64,000 nt of DNA from Ginglymostoma cirratum (taxonomy: Eukaryota). Position 1 is the first letter of the stretch. Each line of letters begins with the position of its first letter. Made by a program: the position numbers and the translations under genes. Location: the NCBI GenBank assembly GCA_024137785.1, contig JAHRHZ010000002.1:15633978-15697977 (forward strand), in the 5' to 3' direction. Shown in pieces: positions 449 through 28,988 of this stretch. Under the pieces are notes generated by a model. It saw only the letters and a list, made by a program, of their open reading frames with translations. It was not told the origin of the DNA and ran no database searches.

Positions 449-502
449 TTAAGTTAGCCCGACATCAGCAACTGTAGGTTTCAAGAATGGCTGGTTCAGC
501 TC
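449..502 (-). CDS. Gene A exon 10, last coding exon (ELNQPFLKPTVADVGLT*)
   Basis: Strong acceptor ttttttcattccttgtag|, phase 0, TAA at 451-449. Confidence 0.6.
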   Translation of the reverse strand, partial: ELNQPFLKPTVADVGLT

Positions 503-3500
503 CTACAAGGAATGAAAAAATGCGAATTGAGTTGTCTGTGACCAAAAAAAAAGTACTTGAGATAACAAGCTATAGGGCTGGATGAACACGGCAGGCTAAG
601 CAGCATCAGAGGAGCAGGAAAGCTGACGTTTCGGGTCTAGACCCTTCTTCAAAAAATTCATTCCCCGCCCCCCCCCAAAAAATACTCATGGATGTTATTT
701 GCATCTTATTGAAAAATATTCCCTCAATTGAATTATTTCCATTTTTAACACCAACAAGATTTAATGGTTTTTTCAATTTTTTTAAAAGACAGCTATCCTG
801 GTCTGGTATTATTAAGTATGTTTAAAATCCACCATGTAGCATTATAAGGCATTCTGTACAGCAATTTCAATCATTTTCTGGCTTCTTTGGCCCGGCGGCT
901 CAGGGTCGATTCCACCCTCAGGTGACTGTCTGTGTGGAGTTTGCACATTCTCTCTGAGTTTTTTCCCACATCCCAAAGATGTGTAGGCTAGGTGGATTAG
1001 CCATGGGAAATACAGGGCTATAGGAATAGGGTGGGTGGAGGGGTGCTTCTGGGTGGGATGCTCTTTGGAGGGTCGATGTGGACTCAGTAGTCTGAGTGAC
1101 CTACTTCCACACTGTAGGGATTCTAAAGTTCAATTTCATTCCAATAGATTATTTGTGCTGCAATTTCCAAATGATAAATTTCAACTTTCTGGAGTGTGAC
1201 ACTGATATTAATTCAACCTTGTACCGGAGAAGAGGACATTAGGTTTGTTTTACTCTACTACTCAACACAACATAGCACAGGATGAGTGACTCCGTCAATG
1301 TGTGTATCACTAGGACCATACACGTCCACTTGCAGAAAGCCCAGTGGTATGCTTTTTGCTGAGGAGATACTCGAACCTCTAAGACTGAAATCAAACAAAA
1401 TCTTCACTTCTATCTACAGCAACGTGTGAAAACTACAGGAACATTTATTTACATGAAGATTGAAAACAAAGGCTGCATTTCTAACCTGGATGTGATACTT
1501 AATTTTATGATTTTATCAAGTTCTCTTACAGCGTTACTTGTAGCTTGGTTTCCTGTGGCCTGCATCTTCCTGTTCCTGTCTGTTTATGGGGAACACACAA
1601 TGCATTATATTGCAGGAGAAATGACATTGGGCAAAGATTTTCAATAGATAGATGTTTGGAATATCATCTGGAACTTCTTTCCTGCATCAGATTTAACCAT
1701 ACAGCCCAATAAGGATTAATAGCTTGTATAAAAACCACCTTGCCCGTCGTATTATGAACCGACTTATTTTAATGGCTTTGCTGAAGTGGCAGACAAATCA
1801 ATTTCACAGAAACATTGGAACAGCAGTCGCTTGGTAGTACACAATTTGAGCACTGTTGGAAAAAAAGACACATTTCTTCGAAGCTCTTCATCTTTCACTC
1901 AACAGGACCATTTGTAAGAAATGGCAATTCAAAGGAAAATCTGCATTTATACCGCATGAGAGGAGAGTACTGACTGGCTCATGAATGGACTCCAATTTGT
2001 CGAGGCTTACTGTCATTCATCATTGATTGGTACATCCCATGGTAATGCCAAGTTTTGCTCAAACTGTGAACCAGGCTGGATAACTCCGTTTGGTCGCAGC
2101 ATTTCCCTGAGAAACAGATTAGTGGGTGGCTACCACCCATCTTGTCAAGTTTAAACAAGGGCAGTGCATGTCCATATTCTTTCTGGCTGCCAAGAGCAGG
2201 GCCCTGTGTATTAATCTATAGCTAGCCCCATAAATTGGTATTCTTGAGAACTGTCCTGATGGGGGGAAGATGAAAAGCATCAACAAAATGTGACTTTGTA
2301 CTCAAGAAATATCACACTCAAAGATCAGATTCGTTTCTAGTACCTCGGTCAGTCCAAGGTGGTCTGTCTGAACTCATTCCTTGTTAAAACTTTTTAACAG
2401 TTCAATACAACTGAGAGGCTTCCTTGGCCATTTAAGAGTCAACTGCTTGCTGTTTATTTGGAGTCACCTGTAGGCCAGACAACAGATTTCTATCTCTCAA
2501 GAACAGTTATGAATCAGGTGGATTTTTTTTCTAAACAATAATGGTCACCATTTGACTTTTTTTTAATTTCAGGCTATGTTTTTAATTCAAATTCCACAGT
2601 TTGTGGGGGCATTAGAGCCAATGTTAACCTGGGTCTCTGGATTCATAGTCCCAACGAAAATACAAGTACGCCAACAACTCCTTAACACATAAGGAACTCA
2701 AAAGAACCTGTACCGAACCATATAAATCCCTTAGCATACTTGGTGGGGTGAACGTAGACAGGAAATTTCCTCTTGTGGAAGAATATAGAGGTAGGGACCC
2801 CTGTTTAAAAATAAGGGTTTTCCTATTTAAGGCAGAGATGAGGTACCTTTTTTTTTTCTGTGGGGAGCTGTTTGTCTTTGGAATGGTCATCCTCAAAGGT
2901 GCTGAATGCAGAGCATTTGAATGTTTTATTTAAGGCAGAAATAGATGGATTCATGCTAAATGAGGAGTGGGAGTTAATTAGCAGTAGGTGGGCATTTTTT
3001 TTTCATTCACAGAATGGGAGCGTCACTGGCTGGGTAGCATTTATTGCCTATCCCAGAGCGCAGTTCAGAGTCAACCACATTGCTGTGGCTATGGAGTCAC
3101 ATGTAGGCCAAATCAGGTAAGGATGGCAGTTTCCTTCCCTAAAGGGCATTAGTGAGCCAGGTGGGGTTTTCCCTGACAATCAGCAATGGATTTATGATCA
3201 TCATTAACCATATTTATTGAATTCAAATTCCACCAGCTGCAATAACAGGATTCAAACCCAGGTCCCCAGAACATTACCCAGGTCTCTAGATTAACAGTCC
3301 AGCGATAATACCACTAGGCTATTGCCTCCCCTTACACTCAGATCAGTCCTAATCTTATTAAATGGCACAGCAGACTTGATGGGCAGAGTATCCTAATTCT
3401 GCTGTTCTTTCAAATGTTCATATGAACGTTGGCTCCAAATTGTCAATTCTTAGGGACATGTCAACAAACACTGCAGGAAGAGATACTGCAAACAGATGGT

Positions 3501-6500
3501 CTAGCAATCAGAAGAACTCAGCACAGCATTTTTTTTTTTAAGAAACAATTGTTGACAGCTGCAGCCGGTACTTTTTTTCTACGTTTCAAGGGTAGGAGAT
3601 TTAATGAACTTCCAACGCTGACAGTTCAACAGACCTCATCTGTGCTTTAAGAGAGTTTACATCTACTCCATTTCGCTTGTGAATTTCACCCTACAGGTCT
3701 GTGCCTGCACAACAGTCAAAATAGGGTCTGTATGAATGGGACACTCATGGTTCTTATGGAGATTGGTTTTCTGTCCCATGTAAATCACACTCAGACACCC
3801 CTCTGGCAAAAATGGTGTCTGTCAGAACTAGAAAGCTGTTCATCTGTATCAGCTGCAGTAGATTTCAAACAATCGGTAATTTCAGTCACATTACTTACAC
3901 ATGACGTAAAATATAAAGCATATCGGAAGTAAAGGTAACAGCACTTCCCCAGCGAGAATTAAACTTGATTGTCGATCGGCTGATGGCACACATCCTTTAC
4001 CTTTATTAGATATAATCATAGACAGGCATGAACTGCAATTATTAAAAGTACTTAAATTAGCTGAACCCTGATTAGAAGCAAAAACCAAAAGAACTGCGGA
4101 TGCTGTAAATCAGGAACAAAAACAAAATTGGTGGAAAAGCTCAGCAGGTCTGGCAGCATCTGTGGAGGAGAAAACAGAATTCTGAGTTCTGAGGAAAGGT
4201 CACCGGACCTGAAACGTTAACTCTGTTTTCTCCTCCACAGATGCTGCCAGACCTGCTGAGCTTTTCCACCAACTTTGTTTTTGTTCCCTATTAGAAGCAC
4301 TTTGCCATACCACCGCCACTAGGAATCCCTAATTCCCAACATAGTCCATTAGCCCATAAGAATAGGAGGAAGCCGTTCAGACCCAGAGCCTGCTCCGTCA
4401 TTCAAAAAGATCACTTCTGATCCCACATTCTTCACTTAGAAACAGGAAGGACCGCAGATGCAGGAAGCTAGAGTCAATAAGTGTGCTGCTGGAAAAGCAC
4501 AGCAGGTCAGCCAGCATCCAAGGATCAGGAAAGTCAATGTCAGTCCTGACGAAGGGGTTCGGTCTGAAACTTTGACTTTCCTGCTCCTCGGATGTCTCCT
4601 GATGTGCTGTGCTTTACCAGCTCCACATTTCTTAGCCCCACATTCCTCACATTCACTTTCTGGCTTTTTCTCCATTACCTTTCATTCCCATACTGATCAA
4701 GAATCTATCTATCTCAACCTGAAATATAGCCATACTTCTCTGTGGCAACTTTCTGAGAGAAGACAGTCTTCCTCATCTTAGGCTTAAATTGGTGTCCCGT
4801 AGTTCTGATACTAGCCCCTCTGGTCCTAGACTCTGCCATGAGGGGAAACATTTTCCCAGCATTTACCATGTCAAGCCCCTTAAGAATACCATATGTTTCA
4901 ATGAGATCAATTCCTTTAAATTCCAATGAGTAAATTCCCAACCTGTTTAACATTTGCTCATAAGACCATCCCTCTATACTGTGGATTGTTCTTGTGAACT
5001 TTCGACTGCTTGAATTATTCTCTCCAGTCCAGTTAGTAAAATAGGCATCACACTTATTACAATGAAGTGACTGGGCAGAGCGTCCCACCCAGACCCAATC
5101 CCCGACACTCCACCTAATCTACTCATCCCTAGGTACAAGTCCCACCTGCCCCAGTCATGAACAAGTTGACTAGAAAGTACCCGGACACGTAAGAAGAAGC
5201 TTTTTAAGTGTTAGTGGAAGAAGTTAAATAGAACAATTTGCCAATAAGATTTAGATGACGAGGAATGGATTGGAGACTCAACTAGATTGCAGGTTCTGAC
5301 AGTGGGATAGTTAGGCCAAAGTGATCTGTTTCTGCTCTGTAATTTCTGTTCTCACTGTGAAACTATACTCTCAGGGGTTTTTGAAGCATAGAATCTTTTA
5401 CCTGAAAGGATGCCTTTCAAGGGAAATGGCATAAATATTTGATGCAGACTGTGATACAGGGAAATAAGGAGAGAGCGAGAATGGGAATTAGATTTGGACA
5501 GAACTGACAGAATGGGCCAAATGGTCTCCTGCACTGTAAACTTTTCATGTTTGACCACTGTCGAACGAAAAGTTTGGTAAAATGACTGCATTATCAGACA
5601 GTATGTTACTTCTGGACTGAATGTATTGGCTACAGTTTTATCTTTGAACACTCACCAGCTCTTCTCACTGTAGCCACAATCAGCGAGCAAGACAGACAGA
5701 TCACAATGATTCCACCCAGAGGACTCTCAGAAACCATTTGGATCAGACGGTAAGCTGGCAACGAATCAAACAGAATCAAACAGTGCTCACCCATGACACG
5801 CACAGCACACATTCCGATCTGTCTGTCTGCCTTGCCTTGGGAGGTGCAGATATTCAGGGAAAGTACAAGGATGATTTTCCTGTTTGAAATAATGGGATCT
5901 CCTGCATTTAGCGCTAACAGAAAAATCAGACAGAACAAACTGCACCTCCCCATCAGTCTGCCAGGCATCCAATCATTTAAAATCAGCAGACAGATAAACA
6001 AGTGCCCTCAATATGGATGTGTGCACCCCTCTGTTCAGTTCTCTTTTCTCGGGAAACTCACTGTTTCTTTGGCCTCCTGCTGACCTATGCCTCCAATCCT
6101 GGGCTGTGAATACATTGCTACTATATTGAGCACAGGAAACCGTGATAACACCAGGCAGTGAAATTTGACAGCAGCCAGCTAACATCCCCAGACAGAGAAC
6201 CACAGGACGACCGAACTCATAACTCAAAGTAGGAGCAACAAATACCCAATCTGACATTCTAGCACATGGGATGGGCTATGTTCAACGGGAGATATTTAGA
6301 AACACTAAGGCACACATTTGTACACTTTATCTGTTTCTTGGGAATAAAGTCATCACCTTAGATACCAATTTCTGGGTACCTGGTTTTTGCACATAATCCA
6401 CAGCTGGTGGCATGGGCACTCTTCCTGTCGGTCCTTTTTGCATAGAATCCCTACAGCGTGGCAACAGGCCCTTCGGCCCAACAAGTCCACACCGACCCTC

Positions 6501-9500
6501 AGAGCATCCCATCCAGATCCATACCACTATAACCCACCTCATCTACACATCCCTGCGTACTATGGGCAATTTAGCACGGCCAATCCACCTAGCCTGCAGA
6601 CCTTTGGCCTGTGGGAGGAAACTGGAGCACTCGGAGGAAACCCACGCAGACACAGGCAGAATGTGACACAGACAGTCACCCGAGGGTGGAATCAAACCTG
6701 GGTCCCTGGCACTGTGAGGCAGCAGTGCTAACCACTGACCCACCTTGCTGCTCCATGGTTTTGGGCTACCCTGGTGAACTCCTGCAATCCGTGATGGATC
6801 AATCTAATTACACAAATATGAATCCAAAACAAGTTCAGGATGTTTCTGTAAATAATCATCATGGCTCAACTGGGAATAGTTTTTCAGTGTTCCACAATTT
6901 GTCTGAAAACCATACAAATACATAAAGATGCCCATGAGACACACAAACCCAATTTGCCTGACAGACAACTACCCTGGACAAAAGTAAGCCACACCAGGTT
7001 GCTTCAGTGAAAATTAAAATGTCTCTAATTATTGTATCACACTTAACTTCAACAGGAAGATTGAAAACAAAACATTTCCCTTTTTTGCAACTTAACTATG
7101 CAGCTTCAAGCCCTCTCCCAAATATACACAAACTTTCAAACATGATAAAGACAGACAGAAAACAAATAGTTAACACATAAACTATGGGTAGAAAAGAATA
7201 TGGAAGGGATAAACAACATTTCAAAGAACAAATTTGAGACCACAATGTGGAAAATCTTTTCTCCCTCAAATCCTTTTGATTATTACAATGGTGAAAAGCC
7301 ACTAACTGTCCTTTGATGGCCATCTCTCAATTCAATGGCTGAGCAGATGAACTTAGGTCTTTTCTTGTATGAAATTCTTTCTTTCAAATGTTCTGAGGTT
7401 TTCTGTCTTTTTCTCCAGATACGACGAAAGAGAGACAGAGAACATGACAGGATGCTGTCTCCGGGCTGGATATTCTCCACACACCCTATGGCACTTACAG
7501 CTTCTCAACATTCTGCAGCTCAACAAATCAGAAAGCTGTTTCCTGGCAGAATCACTTTAGCTCAAAAGATTCTTGTGCCATTCCGTCTCAAATGCCCACC
7601 TTTGATGTTTCCAAAAGCAACATTGTACGGCACAGCCCAAGAAGTTGCAACAGTTGTTTTGAGTTGTGAAACTCTTCTAGTTTTGAATGAAAGTGGTGCA
7701 ACTTCCGGTTCAGTTTCCAGTCAAATGAAAAACATGTGATCTTTTACGTAGTGCAAAAAAAAAACATGATGGGAGTATGTATAATGCAATGTCCTTCCAG
7801 TTATTTCAGTCAAAGGGATTTCCGAAGAAGCTGTCATGCTGTATCTCTCCGAGCTTCACACTATGGATGCCAGACACTGCCAACTCACACACTTGGGGGC
7901 TTCCTGAATTATCATCCACTTACCTCCCAATGTTTCCTGGAGGTCATGAGGTCTGAATCTGAGCCAATCCATTGAGCAGGCTGCCTCATTAATCTCTACA
8001 CTCCTTCCATGTCACTGAATCCTACTCTCACTAATTCCCCACACCACCACCTCTCCCCCCAACACCCCCACCCCTACTAAATGAGGGTTTTGCTGTGCCC
8101 TACAAATATGTAATTTGTAACTGAACTTACGTTTAACAATCCAGGTCTTGCTCAACATTTTTGTATCACAGACCTTCACACTCCAAGTTGAAGGTACTAC
8201 TCCTGCTAACAGGAGTACTAAAAGCATCAATATGATCACTGTGGTTTCAGTAGGCCCTATTTAGGGAAGAAAACGTGAACACAATTAAGTCAATTTGTAA
8301 ATTAGGGAATAATAACCATTTCTATTTAATCCTACTTTCAAAATAAGAATACGCAGCATGCAAATAACTGTCTGTGGGCGTTTTTACAACCCAGGCTAAT
8401 GCAGAGGTAAAATATTCAGATTGTCAAAAATATTTTGATATGGCTCATGATTACGGTCCCAATATGTGGAGTTGGGGAGTGAGTGGCAGCAGGGATAGCA
8501 TGTTGTTAAATTTCTGTGAAAGAAGAAGCAGAGTACAAGCTGATTGGAAAACGCAAATCTAAAATGGGCTGCAGCAGCAAAGGGAATACAGAGTCACCAA
8601 TCACTCACACTCATGGCTCTAAGTTAATAAGTGTTACATTTCCAGAGGAATTCAATTCAAAAACTGCGAGGTTATATCAAGCGTGTATTGAACTAAGGGT
8701 GAACCACATTTGGAATCATGATCACCTCAGGAACAATGACAGAATCACTGATGAGGGTGCAGAAGAAATTCACAAGAATTATAGCCATGATGTACTGGTT
8801 ATAATTATCAGGAAAGGCTGAGGTTTTTTGATAACTGCATTAACAATGTTTCCATTCATAGCGGGGACAAAATTGAAAGCCATAAATACAATATAATCAA
8901 CAAATTCTGTAGGAATTCAGGCGAATATTCTTTACCCAAAGAGAATTAAAAAATGAGGGGTATAGAGTCACTACAGTTAAATCATGTGAAGGAGGTTGTG
9001 ACCGGATAAGGTAAAAAGGGTTGAGACGAGGCTCACGTCGAGCATAAATGATAGAATGGATCAGCTGGGCCAAATGGTTATCTCTGGGCTGGAATCTAGA
9101 TGAATCGCTGAGTAAATTACTTACTCAGAGAAACTAATGGGGAATCTTTTGTGCTTTTATGGTTAGACAACATAGCGAAGTGATCTGTAATTATGCAGCA
9201 TGCCATCATTCCTGATTTCACACCACACAAATTCAACAGCTCCTAGAGGCAATAATGTACAGTACAGGTGCTATCAGCTACTGCTAACACACACTCAGAA
9301 GGGCACAGAAAGCCCGCATCTTACTGTTGATTGCCTAAGGTCACCCTGGTCATATGCAACGGGAGACTTACAGCACAAAGCAGGCCATTCAGTCCATTGT
9401 GCCCAGGCCAGTCAACAAAGATCTGATTACACTAATCACATTTTCCAACCCTTGGCCCATCGCTATGGAGGTTATGAACAATTTTTATTATAAGCTCACA

Positions 9501-12500
9501 AATTGGCATTTTTCATCGGATTTTATTTGATTTATTATTGTCACATGTACCTAGGTACAGTGAAAAGTTTTGTTTTGCGCGCAGTACAGATAGATCATAC
9601 CATGCAAAGTGCATCAGGGTAATAGAACAGAGAGAGGAATACAATGTTACGGCTGCAGAGAAGGTGAACAAACAGCAAGATCAACATTAAATTTAAAATT
9701 TGAGTGGTCCATTTGGAAGTCTTAATATCAGTGGGGAAGAAGCTGTTCTTGTGTGTTTACGCTTTTGCACCTTCTGCCCAACAGAAGAAGTTGCAACTGG
9801 ATTGGGAGGCGCAGTTTGAGAATATCTGATGATTCAGTTCCAGAGCAGTCTGTCACTTGGGGTAAATCTTGAATGAACTCTAATTAGGAGCAAAGAAACA
9901 GGACAGTATACTGTACCTTCGGTGGAGATCCAGCAACTAAATGAACCACTAAGGAGAAGAAACTGCAAGATTTGGAGTAGATTTTGAAGAAGCCGAAGAC
10001 CTGGAATTATTAGCAAATTCTAATCAACATTTCTTGAGCAAGGAATGTTCCCACAGTGAAATTAATATTCTATACAAAGAGCCACAAATTGAAATTTGTA
10101 AGAGTCACATTTAGATGATTCATAGCCTCTATTATTACATCGCAACATTTTTGTAAACATTCAATACTTTTGCTTACGTTCTGTTTTGACCTTAAGGAGG
10201 GATGCGATTATTTCACAAATCAATGCTGTTACTGCAGCAGCCAATGCGATGATGGATAATATCCTTGCACAGTCATGTAGCAGTCGAGCACCTGAAACAA
10301 AAAATTTATTTTCAGCTCATGCTACTTTGAAAACAATTTGCAAATTTCAAACAAGGTCTGCTATGCCTTAAAATTGTGCTTCTTTTGGATCTTGCATGTT
10401 ACAAATAGAACACCTCCCACCAAGCTTATTCTGTTTCAATGCGATGGACACACATTTAGAAATAGTGCTGAGGTCTTTCCATTCTATCTCAACGACATAC
10501 TTTGATTCAGTAATCTAGGACCGCATCAATTTCCTATATTGGGCAACCTGCCGCGTTCTGGAGGAGAATCTGAACTTAAACTGTGATCTTCTCCATTAAT
10601 GTTCTCAGTAGATGCCAAAGGTTTGCATCATGAGATTGCAGGCTTGATCTTTTTGTTTTGCCCCAGGTCATGAATGGGGAGCCTGGACATTTCCCAGCCC
10701 CACAAACCCGACCCGACCTGTTTAAAAGTGCCCCCAATGGTTGGATTTTCGTACTAAGATGTAGGTGAAAGCGGGAGCCGTCCCAGACAACGTGACAAAG
10801 AACTCAGAGGCTTCTGGGTGTGGAGGTGTAATGGCTGAAAGTCTGGCCCTGGTGCTCCAGTGCATTGTTTTTGAAGATGCGAAGATAAAAGATAAATGAA
10901 AGCTGACTTCATCCCCCACTCCCCATCACCATACCCCCACATTGCCAGTGTCCCACCCATGCCAACCAATGCCAGTTTGTGCCCTCAATCTACCCTCCAT
11001 GGCTCTTTATAACCCCTATGCCAAACAGTCATGCCAGTCCATGTCCATTCCTTATCCTCTTGGCTTAAATCTACCATAAAACCTCAATAAGTATCCAAGT
11101 AAATAAGTAAATACTATGGACATCCAGTCCCTACACACCTGTATTCCCCATGCTGATGGCCTAAAGGCCCTCCACTTCTTCCTTCCCGCAGAACTGACCA
11201 ATCCCCCTCCACCGACACCATCCGCTTAGCCAAACTCGTCCCCACCCTCAACAACTTCTCTTTCAATTCCTCCCACTTCCTACAGACAAAGGGGGTGGCC
11301 ATGGGTACCCGCATGGGCCCAAGCTATGCCTGCCTCTTTGTAGGTTACGTGGAACAATCCCTCTTCTGTACCTACACTGGCCCTAAACCCCACCTCTTCC
11401 TCCGTTACATTGATGATTGCATCGGCGCCGCCTCGTGCTCCCACGAGGAGCTCGAACAGTTCATCCACTTCACCAACACCTTCCACCCCAACCTGAAGTT
11501 CACCTGGACCATCTCCAACACTTCTCTCTCCTTCCTGGACCTCTCTGTCTCCATCTCTGGTAACCACCTAGAAACCGATGTCCATTTCAAGCCCACTGAC
11601 TCCCACAGCTACCTGGAATACACCTCCTCCCACCCACGTTCCTGCAAAAATGCCATCCCCTATTCCCAATTCCTTGGCCTCCGCCGCATCTGCTCCGAGG
11701 ATGAGACATTCCACTCCCGTACATCTCAAATGTCCTCATTCTTCAAGGACCGCAACTTCCCCCACACAGTGGTCGAGAACGCCCTCGACCGTGTCTCCCG
11801 TATTTCCCAGAACACATCCCTCATGCCCCGTCCCCACAATAATAACCAAAAAAGAATACCCCTCGTCCTCACGTACCAGCCCACCAACCTCTGGATCCAA
11901 TGCATCATCCTCCGACACTTCCGCCATCTGCAATCAGACCCCACCACCAAAGACATTTTTCCCTCCCCACCCTTATCTGCCTTCTGGAGGGACCACTCCC
12001 TCCGCGACTCCCTTGTCCGCTCCACACTCCCCTCCAGCCCCACCACACCCGGCACTTTTCCCTGCAACCGCAGGAAGTGCTACACCTGCCCCCACACCTC
12101 CTCTCTCACCCCAATCCCAGGCCCCAAGAAGACTTTCCACATCAGGCAGAGGTTCACCTGCACATCTGCCAATGTGGTATACTGCATCCGCTGTACCCGT
12201 TGTGGCTTCCTCTACATCGGCGAAACCAAGCGGAGGCTTGGGGACCGCTTTGCAGAACACCTGCGCTCAGTTCGCAACAAACAACTGCACCTCCCAGTNN
12301 NNNNNNNNNNNNNNNNNNNNNNNNNNNNNNNNNNNNNNNNNNNNNNNNNNNNNNNNNNNNNNNNNNNNNNNNNNNNNNNNNNNNNNNNNNNNNNNNNNTC
12401 CACATCAGGCAGATGTTCACCTGCACATCTGCCAATGTGGTATACTGCATCCGCTGTACCCGTTGTGGCTTCCTCTACATCGGCGAAACCAAGCGGAGGC

Positions 12501-15500
12501 TTGGGGACCGCTTTGCAGAACACCTGCGCTCAGTTCGCAACAAACAACTGCACCTCCCAGTCGCGAACCATTTCAACTCCCCCTCCCATTCCTCAGATGA
12601 CATGTCCATCCTGGGCCTCCTGCAATGCCACAGTGATGCCACCAGAAGGCTGTAGGAACAGCAAATCATATTCAGCCTGGGAACCCTGCAGCCCAATGGC
12701 ATCAATGTGGATTTCACAAGCTTCAAAATCTCCCCTCCCCCAACCGCATCCCAAAACCAGCCCAGTTCATCTCCACCTCCCTAACCTGTTTTTCCTCTCA
12801 CCTATCCCCTCCTCCCACCTCAAGCCACACCCCCATCTCCTATCTACTAACATCATCCTGCCCCCTTGACCTGTCCGTCCTCCCTGGACTGACCTATCTC
12901 CTCCCTACCCCCCCCACCTACACTCACCTTTACTGGCTCCATCCCCGCCTCTTCGACTTGTCTGCCACCTCTCCACCTATCCTCTCCTCTATCCATCCTC
13001 TATCCGCCTCCCCCTCTCTCCCTATTTATTTCAGAACCCTCTTCCCCTCCCCCATTTCTGATGAAGGGTCTAGGCCCGAAACGTCAAGTTTTCCTGCTCT
13101 TCTGATGCTGCTTGACCAGATTAGCAACTAGTTTCAGTTTGACAGTTCTTTTGATGGGTCTCTTACCTTGCACCCTGTTAAATATCTCATCCGTTCTTTT
13201 GGCAAATCCACTGAGTTCATGTACTTGTTACACATTTTCGTGTCTGCTATAACAATCCAAAAGAGCTCTTGACTTTTCATAAAGTGCGCTTTATCTTTTC
13301 AAAAATAAACCTTGACCTTCTCCCAAGAACAATATCCAAAAAGCTCAACACTTCTATAAAAGGAGATTCTACTACTCTGAAGAACTTCAGACCTTCTCCA
13401 ATCAGACCTAAAGTGCAGAAGTTGTGTGTTGGACATCCCACTAGCCTGAGACAGCTATGCTTTTTCACATGAAACTGCCTTTGTGAACTGCAAAGGTACA
13501 AATTTGAACTCAGCTCCCTGGGAAAATAATGGGGCCATGTTTGGGAATGGAGTTTAGCCTCTGCTGGTAATTTTGTAACAGTACAGGGAAAGACTCCCTG
13601 TCTATGTGTGAAAATTCAGGTATCCGTCTACAAACCTCCATCCTACTAATTTTTCCTGGCGTGAAAATATATCGTCCTTCTACTTTTACATCTTTAGTAT
13701 CACAGAGACATACAGCACGGAAACAGACCATTCTGAAACATACCAACTGTAATCCCAAACCAAACTCGTCCCACCTGCCTGCTCCTGGCCCATATCCCTC
13801 CAAATATTTCTTATTCATGTACTTCTCTAGATGTCTTTTAAATGTTGTAACTGTACACACTTCCTCTGGAAGTTCATTCCACACATGAACTACTGTCTGT
13901 GTAAAAAAAACTGTCCCAATGACTTTTTTAATCTTTCTCCTCTCACCTTAAAAATATGCCCTCTAGTCTTGAAATCCCCTGCCCACAGGTAAAGATGTCT
14001 TTTCTATACCCCTCATGATTTCATAACCTCTATAAGGTCATCACTCAACCTCCTACGCTGGAGTGAAAGTAATCCCAGCCTATCCAGCCTCTCCTTATAA
14101 CTCAAACTGTCCATTCCCAGCGACATTCTGGTAATCTCTTCTGAACCCTCACCAGCTTGAGAAATATCTTTCCTATGACGGGGCAACAAGACCTGGACAC
14201 AGTACTCCAGAAGAGGCCTCACCAACGTCCTGTACAATTGCATTACGACATCCCAACTCCTATACTCAAAGGTCTCTTTGTTGAGGCTGAGTGCAGGCCC
14301 AATAGTGGAATATCATTTTTAACTAAGAAACGGAACCGATTACCAGACATGACTCACCGTGTAAAATAAGGCGATACGCATCGCTCCTCTTGCTGAACAG
14401 ATTTTCCACGGTGCAGGTGTAGGTGCCGCAGTCTGTTTTTGTGGCTTTAACAATGATCAACTTGCTGTTGTTTTGTACCAACTGATAATGTTGGCCATTC
14501 TCTATCAAGTCAGGACCTTTCCTCCACAGAATGGAACTCGCTTTTCCTCCAGCCACGTGACAGGTCAGTTCAACAGTGGAATCCACATAGGTAGCTTTGA
14601 CCAAAGGTTCTGCCAATAGTTCTGTGCCAGTGAATAATTATTCAGGTAAATAGGTCTGAGCCTGAGGTATTATGGGCCAGACCAGACGCCTCAAAACATT
14701 TTAAGAAGGTAGCCTAGACCCTAGCCTTTTCTTATTTATAAAGGCAAATGTGAAGTGCCTGTTCCAGATGCCAAACTACTCGATGTTAAGCAAAACACAA
14801 CTTATTTAAACACTAAGGTTAAAATACAACCAAGGAAAGGGAATTTAGAGCAACTTAACACTATTGGAAAACTTATCAGAAAAATAGAGACGGTAACAAT
14901 TATTAATTAGCTGTTCCAATATAGTAACATCTCGTAAACACATCCCTTGGCAAAAAGGAAAAGTCAGACACAGATTATCACATGCAGTCCTCCAACCCAG
15001 GAGGAAACAAAAAAAAAGTCAAGAGAAAATTCAGAGAGCGGCAGCCAGGAGATATTCACCGAAGCTTCCAACTCTGTTGAGATCCCAGTGGCTTCTACTT
15101 AAAGGAAAACCCAGAAATTCTGATTTGTAAGAGCTGACCACACCCATTCAGGCTGTTAAAAAAACCCAAGGCCTCCCAAGCTGTTTACTCAAATGGTCCT
15201 GGTAGACTATTCAGCGCCTCTGTCTTACAAATAAGAAAATTTTCATGTAAACACTTGACAAATTCCACTCCATCTATGCCCTTAATACACTGGCAGTCCC
15301 AGCCAATGTTTTAATTAAGAGATAATAGGTACTACAGCTGCTGGAGATAACAAGGTGTGGAGCTGGATGAACACAGCAGGCCAAGCAGCATCATAGGAGC
15401 AGGAAAGCTTGACGTTTTGGGTCTAGACCCTTCTTCAGAAAAAAAAATTGTTGTGGGGCTGGAGTCAAGTGTAGGGCAGACCAGGTAAAAATGACACTTT

Positions 15501-18500: not shown

Positions 18501-21500
18501 ACTGTAAGGATTCTATGAAAGCAGTGGGCACTGTGCTTTATGCAGAACATGTTGGTGGGCAGCTGTGAGGTCCAACCCTGGATCCTTGCATCACTGCCCT
18601 CAGGCAAGACAGGATGTCCTCCCCACTGCAGTTCCACCATTCTCTTCTGTCAGCCTGATGCCAGATCACAAACACTGGCTGTCACTGCTCCTGAGCCCGG
18701 GCAGAACCCATCGGCTCAATTTGGGAATAATCCCAATTGAATCTCCGGTGGAGACAAACTGTTGCTGCAACAGACATGTGTAGACCTTCACTGGAACCTT
18801 TCACTGTGCAATAGAACCAGAGATTCTGTCTGAACTCCTCCAACTCGTTTTAGAAGGATGAGGGAGGGATCCAACTGAAACTTTCAAACTACCGAAAGGC
18901 CTGGACAAAGTGAATGTTGGAAAGATGCTTCCATCAGTAGGAGAGTCTAGGACCCAAGGACGCAACCTTAGAGTAAAGGGAAGATCTTTTGGAACGGAGA
19001 TAAGGAGAAACTTCTTCAGCCAGAGACTGGTGAATCTATGGAATTCACTGCCACACAAGGCTGTGGAGGCCAGGTCATTGAGTATACTTAAGACTGAGTT
19101 AGACAAGTTCTTGATTATCAAGGGGATCAAGGGTTACAGGGAGAAAGCAGGAGAATGAGGTTGAGGAACTTATCAGCCATGACTGAATGGCGGAGCAGAC
19201 TCGATGGGCCGAATGGCCTAATTTCTGCTCCTATGTCTTATGGTCTTAACTCCTCACAGCCTCTTCTATTATGCTCATTGGTATCATTGTTCAGATTTAT
19301 TAAATCAAGGTCTGCAGTATGATCTAAAAATAGTAAATGTGACATTCATTCTCAATCCTGTTCCTATCTACTTCTACCCCTCCCTCCTTCACACCTCTGT
19401 TAAAAACTTCTATCGGTCTGATTTTTTCTTTACTCATTGAGAGGATGAGGGCGTCACTGGCTAAGTAGTATTTGTTGTTCATCCCTAATTGCCCAGAAGG
19501 CAGTTAAGAGTCAACCACATTGCTGTGGATCTGGAGTCACATGTAGGCCAGACCAGGTAAGGATTGAAGTTTCCTTCCCTAAAGGACATTTACAACCTGT
19601 TCACCACAACAATAAATAGGATGTTGCCAGGTATCAAAGGTATGAGTTATATAGAAAGGTGGATATGTTGGGACTTTTTTCACTGGAGCACAGGAGGTTG
19701 AGAGGTGACCTTTTGAAAGTTTATAAAATAGTGAGGGGTATAGATATGGTTCATGAGATAACAAGGAGTAGAGCTGGATGAACACAGCAGGCCAAGCAGC
19801 ATCGGAGGAGCGAAGGGGCGAAGAGCTCCTCCGATGCTGCTTGGCCTGCTGTGTTCATCCAGCTCTACACCTTGTTATCTCAGATTCTCCAGCATCTGCA
19901 GTTCATACTATCTCTAGATATGGTTCATGGTAGGTGTCTTTTCCCCAGAGTGGGGCATTTCAAGATTAGGGTCACATTTTTAAGTCGAGACAAAAGAAAT
20001 TTTTAAAAAATACGTGGGGGCAAATTTTTTACACAAAGGGTTGTTTGCGTGTGGAATGAACTTCCTGCGGAAATGGCAGATGTAGGCACAATTACAATGT
20101 TTAAAAGACATTTGCATAAGTACATGAGTAGGAAATGGATATGGGCCAGGAGCAGGCAGGTGGGACTAGTTTTGTTTGGGTACATGGTCAGCATGGACTG
20201 GTTGGAACGAAGGGTCAGTTTTTGTGCTGTATGACGCTATTACTTCATACCATACTCCACACTTCACTCAGAGAGTTGTGAACCTGTGGAATTCTCTACC
20301 ATAGAATGCTGTTAGGGCTAATTCATTAGATATATTCAAGAGGGGGCTGGGTCTGCCCTTTGTGGCTAAAGAGATCAAGGCGTATGGAGAGATAGTGGGA
20401 ATGGGATACTGAAATTTCATGATCAGCGTGATCTTATTGAATGGTGGTGCAGGCTCGAAGGGCTGAATGGCCTACTCTTGCACCTGTTTTCCATGTTTCT
20501 GTGGTTTGCACTTTCAGTAGAGGGACAGAGAGAGAGAAAACTGGTTGATCATTGGTGGTTTAATCTGAGGGTCACCTCACCACGGAGAGGGATGAGGTCA
20601 AGAACATGGGACCTTCATAATGAACTCACACTGTTGGCATCACTCTGCATTACATACCTAAATTGGTTAGCTCAGTTGGCTGGGCAGCTGCTTTGGGTGC
20701 AGAGTGATGCCCATGGGCATGGGTTCAGTTCCTATATTTAGCTAAGGTCACCAAAAAGATCCCACTTTCTCAACCTTGCTCCTTCTCTGAGAAGTGGTGA
20801 CCCTCAGGTAAAACTCATCTCTCTGTCTCAATGAGACAGCAGCCTCCAGGACTATGGTGACTAGTAGAGCAACAAATCACAAGTCGCAATTCCCAAGGAA
20901 TTCCTCAACGACGGAATGACAGATACAGCATGACAACAGAAGCTGACAGTCAATTTCTGTCATTTCTTTCTTCGATCCTGATCAGTAGCTTTTATTTAAT
21001 CTTGAATGAAGACAAGCAGTATACGTTTGCTTGATGGAACAATCCAGAACAAGATGGAATAATCTTACAAGCTACAGCTGGACCATTTTACACGCAAATC
21101 ATTTAAGTATTCCCCCCTCCCGATCCCACCATAGGAAGAATCGTGGAATTGACTGTTGGAACGTCATGCTGGGGTCAGTTGAAATTTCCCAGACAAAATC
21201 GATAGGTTTCCTGCTGGGTCATGGAGCTGGCAGAAAGGCACGAAGCAGATCAATGGAAGCCAGGTACAGATCAACCATGGAAGGGTAGAATAGGTTCAAG
21301 GAGCTGAATGGCTTATTCCTGTCCCAATTCAATGACAGAGTCCTTAAAACTGTATCACGATTTGAAATGCATGTCATTTTCAAAGTGATAAAGTATTGAA
21401 ATCACTTACCTATGAGTTTCAGATTCATGCTCCTCTCCCAGTTACCATTCACCGTGATGGTATAAATTCCTTGGTCACCGAGTTTTAGACTGTCTACCAT

Positions 21501-24500
21501 CATTGATCCATTGGATGCATTAAAACGTAAACGGGATTTGAAGTGTTTATTTGGTCTCTGGATTGGGGAATTTGGTACGTAATCCAAAATAGTGACAAGT
21601 TTTCCATTGCTGTTATTGAACGTCCATTCAATCTGACTGTCGCTGAGATTCGTTCCGTGATCAGGATCCAGTAAAACTGATGAACCAATGGCAGCCACAA
21701 CATTGTCCCCTCCAAGTGATTGACATGAAAAACAGAAACAAAAGTAATCCATTAACATGTGAAAATGAAGCATTGAGCAATTGTGAAGTGAAATTGTAAC
21801 ATTATGCCAGCAGGTGTCTGGAGACTCCAAAACAAATAGCCCTTTGTATGGTGTGCTTTACCAAGGCATTCAAAAGCCTTCACAGCGAGTGATGTAATCT
21901 TTGAAATGCAGGCACAATTGCAATTCGTCCACAGCGAATCTCCAGATAAAGCAGCATCAGAAGAGCAGGAAGGCTGACATTTTGGGCCTAGACCATTCTT
22001 CAGAAATGGGGAGGGAAAGGGGGTTCTGAAATAAATAGGGAGAGAGGGGGAAGCGGATAGAAGATGGATAGAGGAGAAGATAGGTGGAGAGGAGACAGAC
22101 AGGTCAAAGAGGCGGGGATGGAGCCAGTAAAGGTGAGTGTAGCTGGGGAGGTAGGGAGGAGATAGGTCAGTCCAGGCCTCCTCTACATCGGGGAAACCAA
22201 GTGGAGGCTTGGGGACCGCTTTGCAGAACACCTACACTTGGTTCGCACTAAACAACTGCACCTCCCAGTCGTGAACCATTTCAACTCCTCCTCCCACTCC
22301 TCAGCTGACATGTCCATCCTGGGCCTCCTGCAGTGCCACAACGATGCCACCCGAAGGTTGCAGGAACAGCACCTCATATTCCGCTTGGGACCCTGCAGCC
22401 CAATGGTATCAATGTGGATTTCACAAGCTTCAAAATCTCCCTTCCCCTACCGCAACCCAAAACCAGCCCAGCTCGTCCCCGCCTCCCTAACCTGTCCTTC
22501 CTCCCACCTATACCCTCCTCCCAACTCAAGTCCCACCCCCATCTCCTACCTACTAACCTCATCCCGCCCCCTTGACCTGTCCGCCCTCCCTGGACTAACC
22601 TATCTCCTCCCTAACTCCCCAACTATACTCACCGTTACTGGCTCCATCCCCGCCTCTTTGACCTGTCTGTCTCCTCTCCACCTATCTTCTCCTCTATCCA
22701 TCTTCTATCCTCCTCCCCCTCTCTCCCTATTTATTTCAGAACCCTCTTCCACTCCCCCATTTCTGAAGAAGGGGCTAGGCCTTCCTGTTCCTCTGATGCT
22801 GTTTGGCCTGCTGTGTTCATGCAGCTCTACACCTTGTCATCTCAGATTCTCCAGCATCTGCAGTTCCTACTATCTCTGAATCTCCAGATAATCTGTTTGT
22901 GTGATGAATAATTGGGATAAATACCATTGTAACATCAGAGGCCACTCCCATCCTCTTCAGAATGGTACCATGGGACCTTCACATCCACTTGAGAGCACCT
23001 GGGACATTTTCTGAGCATCTCATCTGAAAGGCATCACCTCTGACAGGTCAGCCCTGCCTCAGGCAGACAGGAGCAAAGTGAGAGATAATAGGTACTGCAG
23101 ATGCTGGAGAATCCGAGATAACAAGGTGTGGAGCTGGATGAACACAGCAGGCCAAGCAGCATCATAGGAGCAGGAAAGCTTGACGTTTCGGGCCTAGACC
23201 GTTNNNNNNNNNNNNNNNNNNNNNNNNNNNNNNNNNNNNNNNNNNNNNNNNNNNNNNNNNNNNNNNNNNNNNNNNNNNNNNNNNNNNNNNNNNNNNNNNN
23301 NNNNNNNNNNNNNNNNNNNNNNNNNNNNNNNNNNNNNNNNNNNNNNNNNNNNNNNNNNNNNNNNNNNNNNNNNNNNNNNNNNNNNNNNNNNNNNNNNNNN
23401 NNNNNNNNNNNNNNNNNNNNNNNNNNNNNNNNNNNNNNNNNNNNNNNNNNNNNNNNNNNNNNNNNNNNNNNNNNNNNNNNNNNNNNNNNNNNNNNNNNNN
23501 NNNNNNNNNNNNNNNNNNNNNNNNNNNNNNNNNNNNNNNNNNNNNNNNNNNNNNNNNNNNNNNNNNNNNNNNNNNNNNNNNNNNNNNNNNNNNNNNNNNN
23601 NNNCATAGGAGCAGGAAAGCTTGACGTTTCGGGCCTAGACCGTTCATCAGAAAATGATTTTCTGATGAAGGGCCTAGGCCCGAAACGTCAAGCTTTCCTG
23701 CTTCTATGATGCTGCTTGGCCTGCTGTGTTCATCCAGTTCCACATCTTGTTATGCAGGAGCAAAGTGAAGTTGGTGGTAAGGAATGGCTGAGGGAAGGAA
23801 GGGCTGGGGGGTGGGGTTTGGAGGTGGTGGGGGAGGACAGGAGAGAAGAAGAGAAATATCCCAGAGGCCTAGTCAGGACAGAAAGAGAAAGAGTCAACAG
23901 CAAAGCCGAGGGGGTGTGTGTAAAGAGCCCAGAGGAAGGTGGATATCACAAAAAAATACCCAGAATGAAGACACTAGCGAAGAAGAGACCAAACCCAAAA
24001 GGATGGAAAAGTAACCCACAGAGAAAAGGCCCAGTGGGAGGTGAGGAAGAGAAAATTGGCAGAGGCAAGCAGGGATTGAGAATGAACCCAAAGGGAATGG
24101 TTGGGGAAAGAGCCAAAAGGACAGGTTGGGGGGAATGGTGGATGCCCAAGAAAGGAGGGAAGGGATTAGGAGAATGAAAGGGAGGAAGAAGAATGGGGAA
24201 TGGAAAATGGGAAGTGGGAGGGAGGAATGCAAATGTGTGGGCAGCACGTGGGAATTTGTGGAGAGCACTGAAATCCCAGGCAACCACAATGTGATCATTG
24301 TCCACAACCTGACTCATTTCAGTTCAAAGACATTGGGCAGGAATCCAAGCTACAAACCTTGTCAGGCATCAGACAGAGGGAGAGTTACTTTGATTCTTGG
24401 CTTCAGGAAGCACTCACAGCCCCACTGTTCAGAAGGTCTTTAGAAGTGTATATATAATGCTGTGGTTAGGGATTTACTCTAAATGGGGATAGACAGTTTG

Positions 24501-27500: not shown

Positions 27501-28988
27501 TCATTCCATACACGCACTACCCTCTACATGGAAAGGTCCCTTTAAATCTTAACCCTCTCACCTTAAACCTGTGCCCTCTCATTTTGGACTCCCTTACCCT
27601 GGGGAAAAGACCTTGTCTATTCATCCCCTTCATGATTTCAAAAACCTCTATAAGGTCACCTCCCAGCCTCCGATGCTCCAGGGAAAATAGCACCAACCTA
27701 TTCAGCCTCTTCCTGTAGCTCAAAGCCTCCAACCCTGGCAACGTCCTTGTAAATCTTTTCTGAACATATTCAATTTTCACAACTTCCGCCCCATAGCATT
27801 TAGAATAGAATTGCATGCAATATTCCATACGTGGCCTAACCAATGTCCTGTACAGCTGCAACATGACACTCACAACTCCTATACTCAATGCAGTGACCAA
27901 TAAAGGCAAGCGTATCAAATGCCTTCTGCACTGACCTGCCTAACTGTGACTTTCAAGGAACTATGAACTTACACTGCAAGGTCTCCTTGTTCAGCATCGC
28001 TCCCCAGAACCTTACAGTTAAGGTAGATGAAGTGGTTATGATGCCACTTGTGTTACTTGCCCTTACTAACCAAGGCAGAGACGGTTAGAGCTAGGAGGTT
28101 ATGCTGAAACTACATAAGGTGTTGGTTAGGCCACAGATAGAGTATTGTATGCAGTTGTGGGATCCACATTACAGGAGAGAGTGCAGTGTGATTGCACTGG
28201 AGAGGGTGCAGAGGACATTTATCAGGATGTTGATTGGACTGGAGAGTTTTAGTTATGAAGAGAGTTTGGACAAGACTGGAATTGATTTCATTGGAGCAGA
28301 GAAGACTGAGTGGGGGCATATTTGAAATTTAATGCAATGGGCAGGATGTTTAGAGAGGGACAATTATCTTCAGCCCCAGTGTGTTGGGAATCTGGAACTC
28401 ACCTGAATCTATAAGAGTGGTGGAAGCAGAAAGCATTATAATGTTTAAGAAATATTACCATGTGCACTTGCGCATTTAAATTTAGATTTCAATGTGCCAA
28501 CGGATACAAGGCTATGGGCCCAGTGCTGGAAAGTGGGGCTGAAAAAGTTAGCCAGCTGCTTTTGGCTGGAATGGAGTTGATGGGCTGAAAGGCCCTTTTT
28601 TTCTGCGCTGCAGACCTATAGGAATCATCAGGATAGTAAAAGGTTGAATTCCAGTTGTCATAGAATCCCTAACGGTGTGGAAGAAGGCCATTCGTCCCGT
28701 TCAGTTCACACTGACCCTTCAAAGAGCATGTCACCCTTCCCCTGTCCCCTGCCTTTCCCATGCACGCTAAGAGACAATTTCCCACGGCCAATGCACCCTA
28801 ACCTGCACAGCTTGGGTCTGTAGGAAGGAAACTGGAGCACCGTGAGGTAACACAGACACGGGGAGACAGTGCTGACCCCACACATACACAGTTTACACCA
28901 ACCTCCCGGCCCCAGCCAGATCCTCACCTCCTGCAGCGATCCCCCGGAGGAGACCGAGCAGCAACACCAGAAGGGATCGGGGATCCAT
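449..28988 (-). CDS. Gene A (whole span, 10 coding exons): Ig V + Ig C2 + 5-transmembrane protein, about 417 aa; CD2/SLAM/HEPACAM-like ectodomain with a CD47-like multi-pass C-terminus
   Basis: Exons 28988-28928, 21709-21410, 14621-14358, 10291-10178, 10000-9917, 8256-8131, 5754-5656, 4000-3899, 1579-1530 and 502-449 join through GT-AG introns with compatible phases into a 1254-nt ORF with no internal stop. Confidence 0.8.
558..655 (-). mobile_element. Short Penelope terminal-repeat derivative
   Basis: Matches the reverse complement of the 17175-17270 terminus. Confidence 0.75.
895..1125 (+). mobile_element. HE1/V-SINE-like SINE, 5' partial
   Basis: gactgtctgtgtggagtttgcacattctc V-domain core and ctgtagggattcta tail. 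Confidence 0.75.
1530..1579 (-). CDS. Gene A exon 9, basic juxtamembrane cytoplasmic segment (YRNRKMQATGNQATSNA)
   Basis: cag| acceptor, |gtaaga donor, phase 1-0; positively charged residues directly after TM5. Confidence 0.6.
2998..3331 (-). mobile_element. tRNA-derived SINE, family 2
   Basis: A/B-box head (tagcctagtgg, ggtttgaatcc) and gcaataaatgct...gaatgaa tail; other copies near 2425-2680 and 19425-19590. Confidence 0.78.
3899..4000 (-). CDS. Gene A exon 8, loop + TM5 (GKGCVPSADRQSSLILAGEVLLPLLPICFIFYVM)
   Basis: aag| acceptor (in-frame alternative 6 nt downstream), |gtaagt donor, phase 1-1. Confidence 0.72.
4081..4289. mobile_element. Hairpin-forming short Penelope-derived element (second terminal family)
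   Basis: About 70-bp inverted arms around ctgaggaa..ctgaaacgtt; TSD attagaagca at 4071-4080 and 4290-4299. Confidence 0.75.
4350..5075 (-). mobile_element. CR1/HER1-like LINE 3' fragment containing a hairpin insertion (about 4437-4636)
   Basis: ORF 4714-5088: YEQMLNRLGIYSLE..DLIETY.ILKG..SRTRG, typical of the CR1 ORF2 C-terminus. Confidence 0.75.
5656..5754 (-). CDS. Gene A exon 7, TM4 (PYRLIQMVSESPLGGIIVICLSCSLIVATVRRA)
   Basis: ttcgttgccag| acceptor, G|gtgagt donor, phase 1-1. Confidence 0.75.
6441..6750 (-). mobile_element. HE1/V-SINE-like SINE
   Basis: tRNA-like head, V-domain core and LINE-derived tail on the minus strand. Confidence 0.85.
8131..8256 (-). CDS. Gene A exon 6, TM3 (GPTETTVIILMLLVLLLAGVVPSTWSVKVCDTKMLSKTWIVK)
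   Basis: ttttcttccctaaatag| acceptor, |gtaagt donor, phase 1-1, strongly hydrophobic. Confidence 0.82.
9917..10000 (-). CDS. Gene A exon 5, TM2 (RLRLLQNLLQILQFLLLSGSFSCWISTE)
   Basis: ttccag| acceptor, G|gtacag donor, phase 1-1, amphipathic to hydrophobic helix, 177-nt upstream intron. Confidence 0.7.
10178..10291 (-). CDS. Gene A exon 4, TM1 (GARLLHDCARILSIIALAAAVTALICEIIASLLKVKTE)
   Basis: ttttgtttcag| acceptor, |gtaagc donor, phase 1-1, hydrophobic stretch. Confidence 0.85.
12299..12398. other. Assembly gap (100 N) with duplicated flanks; other gaps at 23204-23603, 46118-46517 and 58394-58580
   Basis: N runs; about 12136-12298 is repeated almost exactly after the gap. Confidence 0.95.
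13058..13085 (+). ncRNA. Minimal hammerhead-ribozyme motif in the Penelope terminal repeat
   Basis: CUGAUGA-A-GGGUC(UAG)GCCC-GAAAC-GUC: conserved core boxes with stem II. Confidence 0.65.
13700..14275 (-). mobile_element. CR1/HER1-like LINE 3' fragment
   Basis: LYRTLVRPLLEYCVQ..ERLDRLGL.SL.RRRL..DLIEV; WNELPEEV. Confidence 0.85.
14358..14621 (-). CDS. Gene A exon 3, Ig C2/I-set domain
   Basis: ELLAEP...VELTC...ILWRK...NSKLII...DCGTYTCTVEN; cag| acceptor, G|gtgagt donor, phase 1-1, 264 nt. Confidence 0.9.
15320..17270. mobile_element. Rearranged Penelope-like insertion (inverted RT fragment + sense GIY-YIG/terminal part) with a 16-bp TSD
   Basis: TSD caatgttttaattaag at 15304-15319 and 17271-17286; minus-strand RT fragment about 15514-16135; plus-strand 3' part 16136-17270. 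Confidence 0.9.
17599..17945 (+). mobile_element. tRNA-derived SINE, family 2
   Basis: Homologous to 2998-3331 and 53335-53692. Confidence 0.75.
18203..18518 (+). mobile_element. HE1/V-SINE-like SINE
   Basis: ggtggctcagtggttagc A-box, ggtttgattcc B-box, V-domain core. Confidence 0.85.
18850..19245 (+). mobile_element. CR1-like LINE 3' end
   Basis: SRTQG..LRV.G..F.TEIRRNFFSQR.VNLWNSLP. Confidence 0.85.
19620..20500 (+). mobile_element. CR1/HER1-like LINE 3' fragments
   Basis: CR1 C-terminal motifs; interrupted by the 19756-19914 hairpin. Confidence 0.75.
19756..19914. mobile_element. Hairpin-forming short Penelope-derived element inserted into a CR1 fragment
   Basis: Near-perfect inverted arms of about 55 bp; 15-bp TSD tagatatggttcatg at 19741-19755 and 19915-19929. 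Confidence 0.85.
21410..21709 (-). CDS. Gene A exon 2, Ig V-set domain without the canonical cysteines (CD2/SLAM/CEACAM N-domain type)
   Basis: V-AAIGSSVLLDP...IEW-F...RL-F...NGS...L-LGDQGIY-ITV; donor G|gtaagt at 21410. The 5' boundary is uncertain (21709 via a GAG acceptor, or 21724 where the acceptor reads CAT). Confidence 0.85.
21950..22877 (+). mobile_element. Penelope-like 3' fragment with an inverted 5' terminal piece and a 14-bp TSD
   Basis: TSD gaatctccagataa at 21936-21949 and 22878-22891; GIY-YIG tail homologous to 12470-13116. Confidence 0.88.
23082..23754. mobile_element. Hairpin Penelope-derived element spanning an assembly gap
   Basis: Inverted terminal sequences; TSD caggagcaaagtga on both sides. 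Confidence 0.75.
23623..23689. ncRNA. Back-to-back pair of minimal hammerhead motifs, one on each strand
   Basis: Minus strand 23650-23623 and plus strand 23662-23689 both read CUGAUGA..stem..GAAACGUC. Confidence 0.6.
25908..26250 (-). mobile_element. tRNA-derived SINE, family 2
   Basis: Homologous to 2998-3331. Confidence 0.78.
26420..26940 (-). mobile_element. CR1-like LINE 3' fragment
   Basis: VQFWSPHYRKDVEALERVQ..RRRMRGDLIEV; FFTQRVV.VWN.LP. Confidence 0.85.
27305..28020 (-). mobile_element. CR1/HER1-like LINE 3' fragment
   Basis: LYRTLVRP.MEYC.QF..RRLGGDLIEV. Confidence 0.85.
28021..28620 (+). mobile_element. CR1-like LINE 3' fragment
   Basis: LVRPQIEYC.QLW.PHY..LERVQR. Confidence 0.75.

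Follow-up and report, generated by a model that had tools for sequence, protein, structure and literature searches.

A gene on the minus strand of the 64,000-nucleotide stretch of Ginglymostoma cirratum contig JAHRHZ010000002.1 analysed here (the window) raises the question of whether its product, an immunoglobulin (Ig) receptor with five predicted transmembrane (TM) helices, is held together by a long-range disulfide like that of CD47. In CD47 a disulfide within one chain, C15-C245, is seen in the crystal structure (PMC8410850), and loss of the bond lowers SIRP-alpha binding, adhesion and calcium signalling (PMC8410850, PMC10902115). The initial annotation proposed the same design for the shark protein and pointed to three cysteines (Cys) that might serve it: a third Cys in the C2 domain, one in the loop between TM4 and TM5, and one just before TM1. 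We find that two of the three are conserved beyond chance, and consider it quite probable that these two, Cys185 just ahead of strand F of C2 and Cys353 in the outer TM4-TM5 loop, are bonded within one chain.

Ten AG/GT-bounded coding exons on the minus strand splice in silico to 417 codons with no internal stop, and the 417-residue product consists, in order, of a signal peptide, a V domain, a C2 domain, five membrane exons of one helix each and a tail (Table 1). Every intron as far as the first tail exon is in phase 1. The third C2 Cys, annotated within the motif D-C-G-T-Y-T-C, is encoded by TGC in the C2 exon of this gene, and the loop Cys, within G-K-G-C-V-P, by TGT in the TM5 exon of the same gene. 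RefSeq orthologues from zebra shark (86% identical, 328/383) and whale shark (88% identical, 232/263) have the same parts as the window protein. Read mapping covered positions 3800-5900, and the other junctions were drawn from splice signals, the open frame and the RefSeq orthologues. A contig from run X1, whose RNA status is a guess by the tool rather than a recorded entry, joins 3899-3998 directly to 5654-5768 with no mismatch and so reads across the splice from TM4 to TM5 (5656 to 4000), where two letters fit on either side. Run X10, obtained by RNA sequencing, covers the TM4 and TM5 exons at a low depth of 0.6-3.2 in a single orientation, with no joint read across the TM4-TM5 junction among the rows listed. 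(We do not count the open frame at 5630-6007, which lies upstream of the TM4 acceptor, as an exon because orthologues splice K to P-Y-R at 5754, although the X1 contig extends 14 letters beyond this acceptor; an alternative TM5 acceptor near 4031 was also rejected, as an in-frame stop would result and the contig uses another.)

The evidence that carries the proposed bond comes from the family as a whole. Our alignment (A4) comprises 88 rows; excluded beforehand were P0099, isoform duplicates, two rows whose tails are very long, and truncated models. Another 11 rows, in which either the TM4-TM5 region or the F strand is missing, and 17 near-duplicates were then removed, which left 60 members for scoring. 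Across these 60 the canonical Ig Cys are invariant, the D-C-G Cys is present in 53 and the loop Cys in 56; the pre-TM1 Cys is present in 13 of 57, a Cys of the strand-A' region in 9 of 60, and no remaining Cys column is filled in more than 25 rows. The D-C-G and loop Cys do go together, as had been suspected: both are kept in 53 members and both lost in 4, the Ig Cys alone is lost in 3, and the loop Cys alone is never lost (70, 4, 3 and 0, respectively, for all 77 scorable rows).

On a tree computed without the two Cys columns, the loop Cys changes three times, and every change falls on a branch that loses the Ig Cys as well. These double losses are found in a Scyliorhinus catshark pair (Ig residue Y, loop residue W), in P0060 of basking shark (S and R) and in P0090 of sawfish (S and no residue, the loop being shortened). 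When the six losses of the Ig Cys were permuted over the tree by branch length, all three loop-loss lineages were struck with P 3.5e-4. Conservation of at least 80% is found in 22 further columns; the same three lineages differ there in 3 of 66 cells, with no column altered in more than one of the lineages. Moreover, the Ig Cys and loop Cys columns are mutual best partners among 264 columns, with a correlation of 0.74 (next 0.37) and a mutual information with average product correction of 0.266 (next 0.169); the pre-TM1 column does not covary with the Ig Cys. Note that the Cys pair had been fixed by the initial annotation ahead of the co-loss test.

A forward test was made on distant genes in the same genome, for which we fetched 20 further C2-like exons and four loci from a search with a CD47 Ig model. 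A Cys occupies the D-C-G position in 7 of the 23 that could be scored. We then read 20-60 kb downstream of six of these seven exons and of six exons with D-S-G. L043 proved to be a near paralogue that has the full set of five membrane exons as well as the loop Cys. Four others (L025, L026, L037 and L038), chosen only by their Ig Cys and beyond reach of the family profile, lie on contigs C213 (near 971,300 and 1,011,550) and C29 (near 8,661,800 and 8,783,200), and all four have a TM5-type exon with Cys as its third whole codon, in the contexts K-K-C, I-F-C, T-E-C and T-E-C in place of the K-G-C of the window gene. TM1-, TM2- and TM3-type exons are likewise present downstream of each, together with a TM4-type exon in three of them (none was found for L026). 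No such set of membrane exons lies within 20-30 kb downstream of the six D-S-G exons.

The initial annotation also placed the TM4-TM5 loop outside the cell, a placement with which both the charge pattern and a structural model agree. The family hydropathy profile has five peaks, of which TM2 and TM4 are the weakest (1.8 and 1.9), and net charge is +1.6 in loop 1, +2.7 in loop 3 and +2.3 in the tail, against -0.1 in the linker, -0.7 in loop 2 and -0.1 in loop 4; by the positive-inside rule, the TM4-TM5 loop is predicted to be on the outer side. An AlphaFold2 model of the whale-shark orthologue, made with 88 sequences, has a predicted local distance difference test score (pLDDT) of 85, a predicted template-modelling score of 0.70 and five long helices. 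(A first fold with 8 sequences, at pLDDT 46, was unusable.) Strands F and G of the model span residues 71-78 and 83-90, and helix 1 starts at residue 94 after a linker of about three residues; the Ig Cys (Cys70) stands immediately before strand F, and the loop Cys (Cys238) in the six-residue gap between helix 4 (213-234) and helix 5 (241-278). We therefore predict five helices with the amino end and the TM4-TM5 loop outside. Strands F and G of an Ig fold pair as a hairpin and, because the Ig Cys directly precedes F, it would sit at the membrane pole of the domain, next to where strand G ends. The pre-TM1 Cys falls inside the start of helix 1 (94-126 in P0002). A prediction of the complex between the C2 domain and the membrane part, made with alignments not used, gave a score of 0.04 and was weighed neither way.

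Covariation is blind to the difference between bonds within and between chains, and the Ig Cys of one subunit might instead pair with the loop Cys of another, yielding a covalent dimer or oligomer. However, the model puts the two at the outer membrane surface of a single chain whose linker is three residues long, and the bond of CD47 is within one chain; we regard an interchain bond as unlikely. Slightly less likely still is that the Ig Cys pairs with a nearer partner, either the pre-TM1 Cys (LHDC) or the strand-A' Cys (T-C-V-D) of some members, the loop Cys being otherwise employed. The window protein does possess the pre-TM1 Cys; two members devoid of the D-C-G Cys, P0013 and P0068, have both an A'-region and a pre-TM1 Cys; and a gene on contig C141 combines D-C-G with a stalk Cys ahead of a single helix; yet neither nearer Cys approaches the Ig Cys in frequency, and the pre-TM1 column does not track it. 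The pre-TM1 Cys (LHDCAR), although present where it had been annotated, stands outside the design as a lineage-specific residue; pairing with a nearer Cys may serve as a local stand-in, confined to a few lineages.

If the protein were not five-pass, the TM4-TM5 loop could be cytoplasmic and its Cys a lipid-attachment site. The weakness of the TM2 and TM4 hydropathy peaks would agree with this, as would one subfamily with an extra TM4-like exon behind TM2, the skipping of a helix exon in some isoforms and several basic residues in the TM4-TM5 loop of the window protein. We consider such a topology very improbable, since charge alternates family-wide as a five-pass, amino-out protein demands, the model has five long helices, and a cytoplasmic Cys would have no reason to vanish alongside an extracellular one. 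That the double losses are a coincidence in decaying or fast-evolving genes gains something from there being three events only, but the retention of other conserved columns in the same lineages and the permutation result make it, in our estimation, next to negligible.

Several observations weigh against a bond between Cys185 and Cys353 within one chain. The loop Cys can persist without the Ig Cys, which alone is lost in P0013, P0046 and P0068; two of these losses lie on very short end branches (0.04 and 0.018) and that of P0068 on a long one (1.13), P0068 having a counterpart in a D-R-G paralogue in the G. cirratum genome. Three independent double losses are too few for a sign test on independent pairs (p 0.25), and the permutation takes losses as proportional to branch length. 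Outside the design, a titin-like I-set exon (L023) has a Cys at this Ig position, and downstream of the D-C-G exon on C141 (L033) there appears to be just one membrane exon, which has a stalk Cys. The fold is that of the whale-shark orthologue and not of the window gene's own product, and in several RefSeq isoforms a helix exon is missing, so that the loop would come to lie inside. (The C141 locus, at about 511,060-512,300 with L033 and L051, has its stalk Cys in LECR and may be the clamp in a single-pass form; P0051, a catshark paralogue with one membrane pass, lacks the loop and has D-R-G.)

The comparison with CD47 bears on how far the analogy extends. CD47 is termed the sole five-pass receptor of the immune system in PMC8410850, which found no relative of its membrane domain. 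According to PMC10902115, exon 2 of CD47 encodes the Ig domain, and the variable tail runs from exon 8 on. This numbering would leave five exons for five helices, as in the shark gene. The loop Cys of CD47 would lie at the start of the fifth of these. Both proteins set an Ig ectodomain on five helices with the amino end outside (a prediction for the shark protein), a short linker and a short tail, and in both the loop that joins helices 4 and 5 on the outer side has a conserved Cys and an extra Ig Cys sits at the (here predicted) membrane pole. A conserved aromatic residue and a Gly are found around the first outer loop in each (Y184 and G191 in CD47, W155 and G160 here), a likeness that need not be homology. 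Unlike CD47, which has a single V domain, the shark protein has a Cys-less V domain plus C2, and its Ig Cys lies five residues before the strand-F Cys, whereas that of CD47 precedes the strand-B Cys by eight (33 and 41), a place at which the window C2 has Val. It also has no RVVSWF-type linker, the family's linker columns being without a Trp-Phe pair.

Searches by sequence were made through HMMER filters, which discard weak matches; with that limit, no CD47 family was returned from Pfam for 30 membrane parts among the matches listed (top 25 each) or for 28 whole proteins, and none of the solved CD47 chains was matched by two profiles at an E-value (E) of 10. Structure searches gave no CD47 chain among the matches listed (at most 50), which Ig domains filled; the membrane part may yet have a CD47 fold. 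A CD47 membrane model had 0 matches in the G. cirratum genome, but 0 in its controls too, and the CD47 Ig model had four weak matches, three of them reading as I-set exons of large multi-Ig proteins. In the Foldseek viral library, poxviral CD47 homologues make up four of the top five rows, aligned along their whole length with TM-scores of 0.20-0.30 and root-mean-square deviations of 13-21 A; these rows agree with parts arranged in the same order but do not so far point to a common fold. Because of the two Ig domains, the other position of the Ig Cys, the missing SWF linker and the lack of a membrane-part match, the family is not classed as a CD47 member; it is like CD47 in layout. A common origin of the two membrane modules is an idea that we entertain only tentatively. 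Of the CD47-style clamp as initially conceived, what stands is the co-conservation and the outer loop; the pre-TM1 Cys drops out, and the likeness is one of layout, without detected sequence kinship.

In its ectodomain the protein resembles receptors of the CD2/SLAM, CEACAM and HEPACAM type, in which a Cys-less amino-terminal V is likewise followed by C2, and its matches among solved structures include CEACAM1, CEA and CD2. Those receptors are single-pass or lipid-anchored, unlike the present family with its five membrane exons. Nor are the tyrosine switch or inhibitory motifs of SLAM and CEACAM1 a feature here, motif-like strings being found in 6 of 81 family tails and in neither of the two closest orthologues. 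The names that members have in databases (HEPACAM-like, CD48-like, VEGFR-like and 2B4-like) are automatic labels taken from the Ig part and are misleading.

If Cys185 and Cys353 are indeed joined, the two would bond within one chain in the secretory pathway and would pin the membrane-side end of the ectodomain to the helix bundle. The short linker and the bond would then act as two anchors that fix the tilt of C2 on the outer loops, and this tilt would set how high the Cys-less V domain stands and where it points. To judge by CD2/CEACAM-type proteins, that domain likely does the binding, with its partner on another cell. From the CD47 precedent alone, the tether may also relay ligand binding to the helix bundle. 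Since the tail is short and tyrosine motifs are rare, signalling would go via membrane partners.

A whole-protein profile matched 39 elasmobranch proteins at E 1e-22, and a profile of the membrane part only (15 sequences) had 62 matches at E 0.001 among 1.84 billion representatives, one of which, P0099, was excluded as a repeat. The shark-centred membrane profile and a broader one match along their full length with probability 99.9. The 20 clusters given names come from cartilaginous fish (sharks, rays, skate, sawfish and chimaera) and from tetrapods (caecilian, two salamanders, turtles, gull, duck, rhea, chicken with LOC422295, platypus and echidna); among these 20 there are 0 from teleosts, marsupials or placental mammals, about 28 further matches being unnamed. 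Kinship with TRPV4, which the membrane part matched at E 0.009 in a profile search, was discounted as hydrophobic background. In the ESM Atlas the membrane part had no usable match, and the chicken protein returned its own cluster first and then generic Ig clusters.

In the G. cirratum genome there are at least seven near paralogues on the contig of the window, with both Cys present in six of seven, besides the four distant ones on C213 and C29. Genes of the V plus C2 kind are clustered on the contig of the window at 15.30-15.83 Mb and 18.27-18.46 Mb. Two paralogues have a V exon nearly identical to that of the window gene together with different C2 and membrane exons, which suggests exon-level conversion or shuffling. 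A shark subfamily (P0031, P0033, P0038, P0040, P0043, P0052 and P0053) has about 30 extra residues behind TM2, beginning with a Cys, that look like a duplicate of the TM4 exon; most of its members have the strand-A' Cys, and a second outer disulfide is possible there. RefSeq isoforms among P0024, P0034, P0035, P0036, P0049, P0037 and P0053 skip a single helix exon or the C2 exon, and with the C2 exon the Ig Cys is gone.

The features of the gene are collected in Table 1. The acceptor of the V exon (21710-21712) is an uncommon GAG behind a good pyrimidine tract, and the frame that it gives matches the zebra-shark protein. The last exon (502-449) encodes an E/Q-P-F-L string, found again in several orthologues and paralogues, that is a possible sorting signal. 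Retroelement fragments of reverse-transcriptase and GIY-YIG-like kind lie in the introns (11157-12869, 15332-17224, 22166-22879 and 35017-36226). A separate Ig gene lies upstream on the minus strand (51854-51807, 50331-49940 and 41239-41138) and consists of a signal peptide, one V exon with two extra Cys and a membrane exon; the bamboo-shark gene model P0004 merges it with the five-pass gene.

Table 1. Coding exons and cysteine codons of the five-pass Ig receptor gene, in order of translation (positions in the window).
Feature	Position	Strand	Remarks
Signal-peptide exon	28928..28988	-	61 nt; phase 1 donor
V-set Ig exon	21410..21709	-	0 Cys; 4 N-glycosylation sequons; Pfam V-set E 4.5e-8
C2/I-set Ig exon	14358..14621	-	canonical Cys at 14562-14560 and 14415-14413; Pfam I-set E 8.4e-14
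Extra Ig Cys, Cys185 (D-C-G, before strand F)	14428..14430	-	53/60; covaries best with loop Cys
TM1 exon	10178..10291	-	
Pre-TM1 Cys, Cys216 (LHDCAR)	10269..10271	-	13/57; within helix 1 start in model
TM2 exon	9917..10000	-	near-invariant Trp (57/59) at its end
TM3 exon and start of second inner loop	8131..8256	-	near-invariant Gly (56/58) comes first
TM4 exon	5656..5754	-	
TM5 exon	3899..4000	-	begins within outer TM4-TM5 loop
Loop Cys, Cys353	3990..3992	-	third whole codon of TM5 exon; 56/60 in family
First tail exon	1530..1579	-	cytoplasmic by charge
Last coding exon	449..502	-	includes stop codon

The literature searched, with subscription journals mostly outside it, holds no description of the family, and LOC422295 is mentioned nowhere there. 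On the evidence above we regard the family as real: a second kind of five-pass Ig receptor, so far without a name, whose predicted CD47-style clamp is well supported and whose genes are currently obscured by the labels given to them. With a second family that has the layout of CD47 and what looks like an equivalent clamp, the origin of the CD47 membrane domain becomes testable, and natural variants with and without the putative bond are at hand; through the chicken and monotreme members, studies of expression, ligand and gene knock-out become practicable. On balance, we lean towards a picture in which jawed vertebrates possess, besides CD47, another and so far undescribed family of five-pass Ig receptors, grown into clusters in sharks and kept as far as birds and monotremes, that clamps its ectodomain to the last outer loop from another Ig position and is either a lost sister of CD47 with the same five-helix module or an independent invention of the clamp; it may be a marker-of-self or cell-contact system outside placental mammals.

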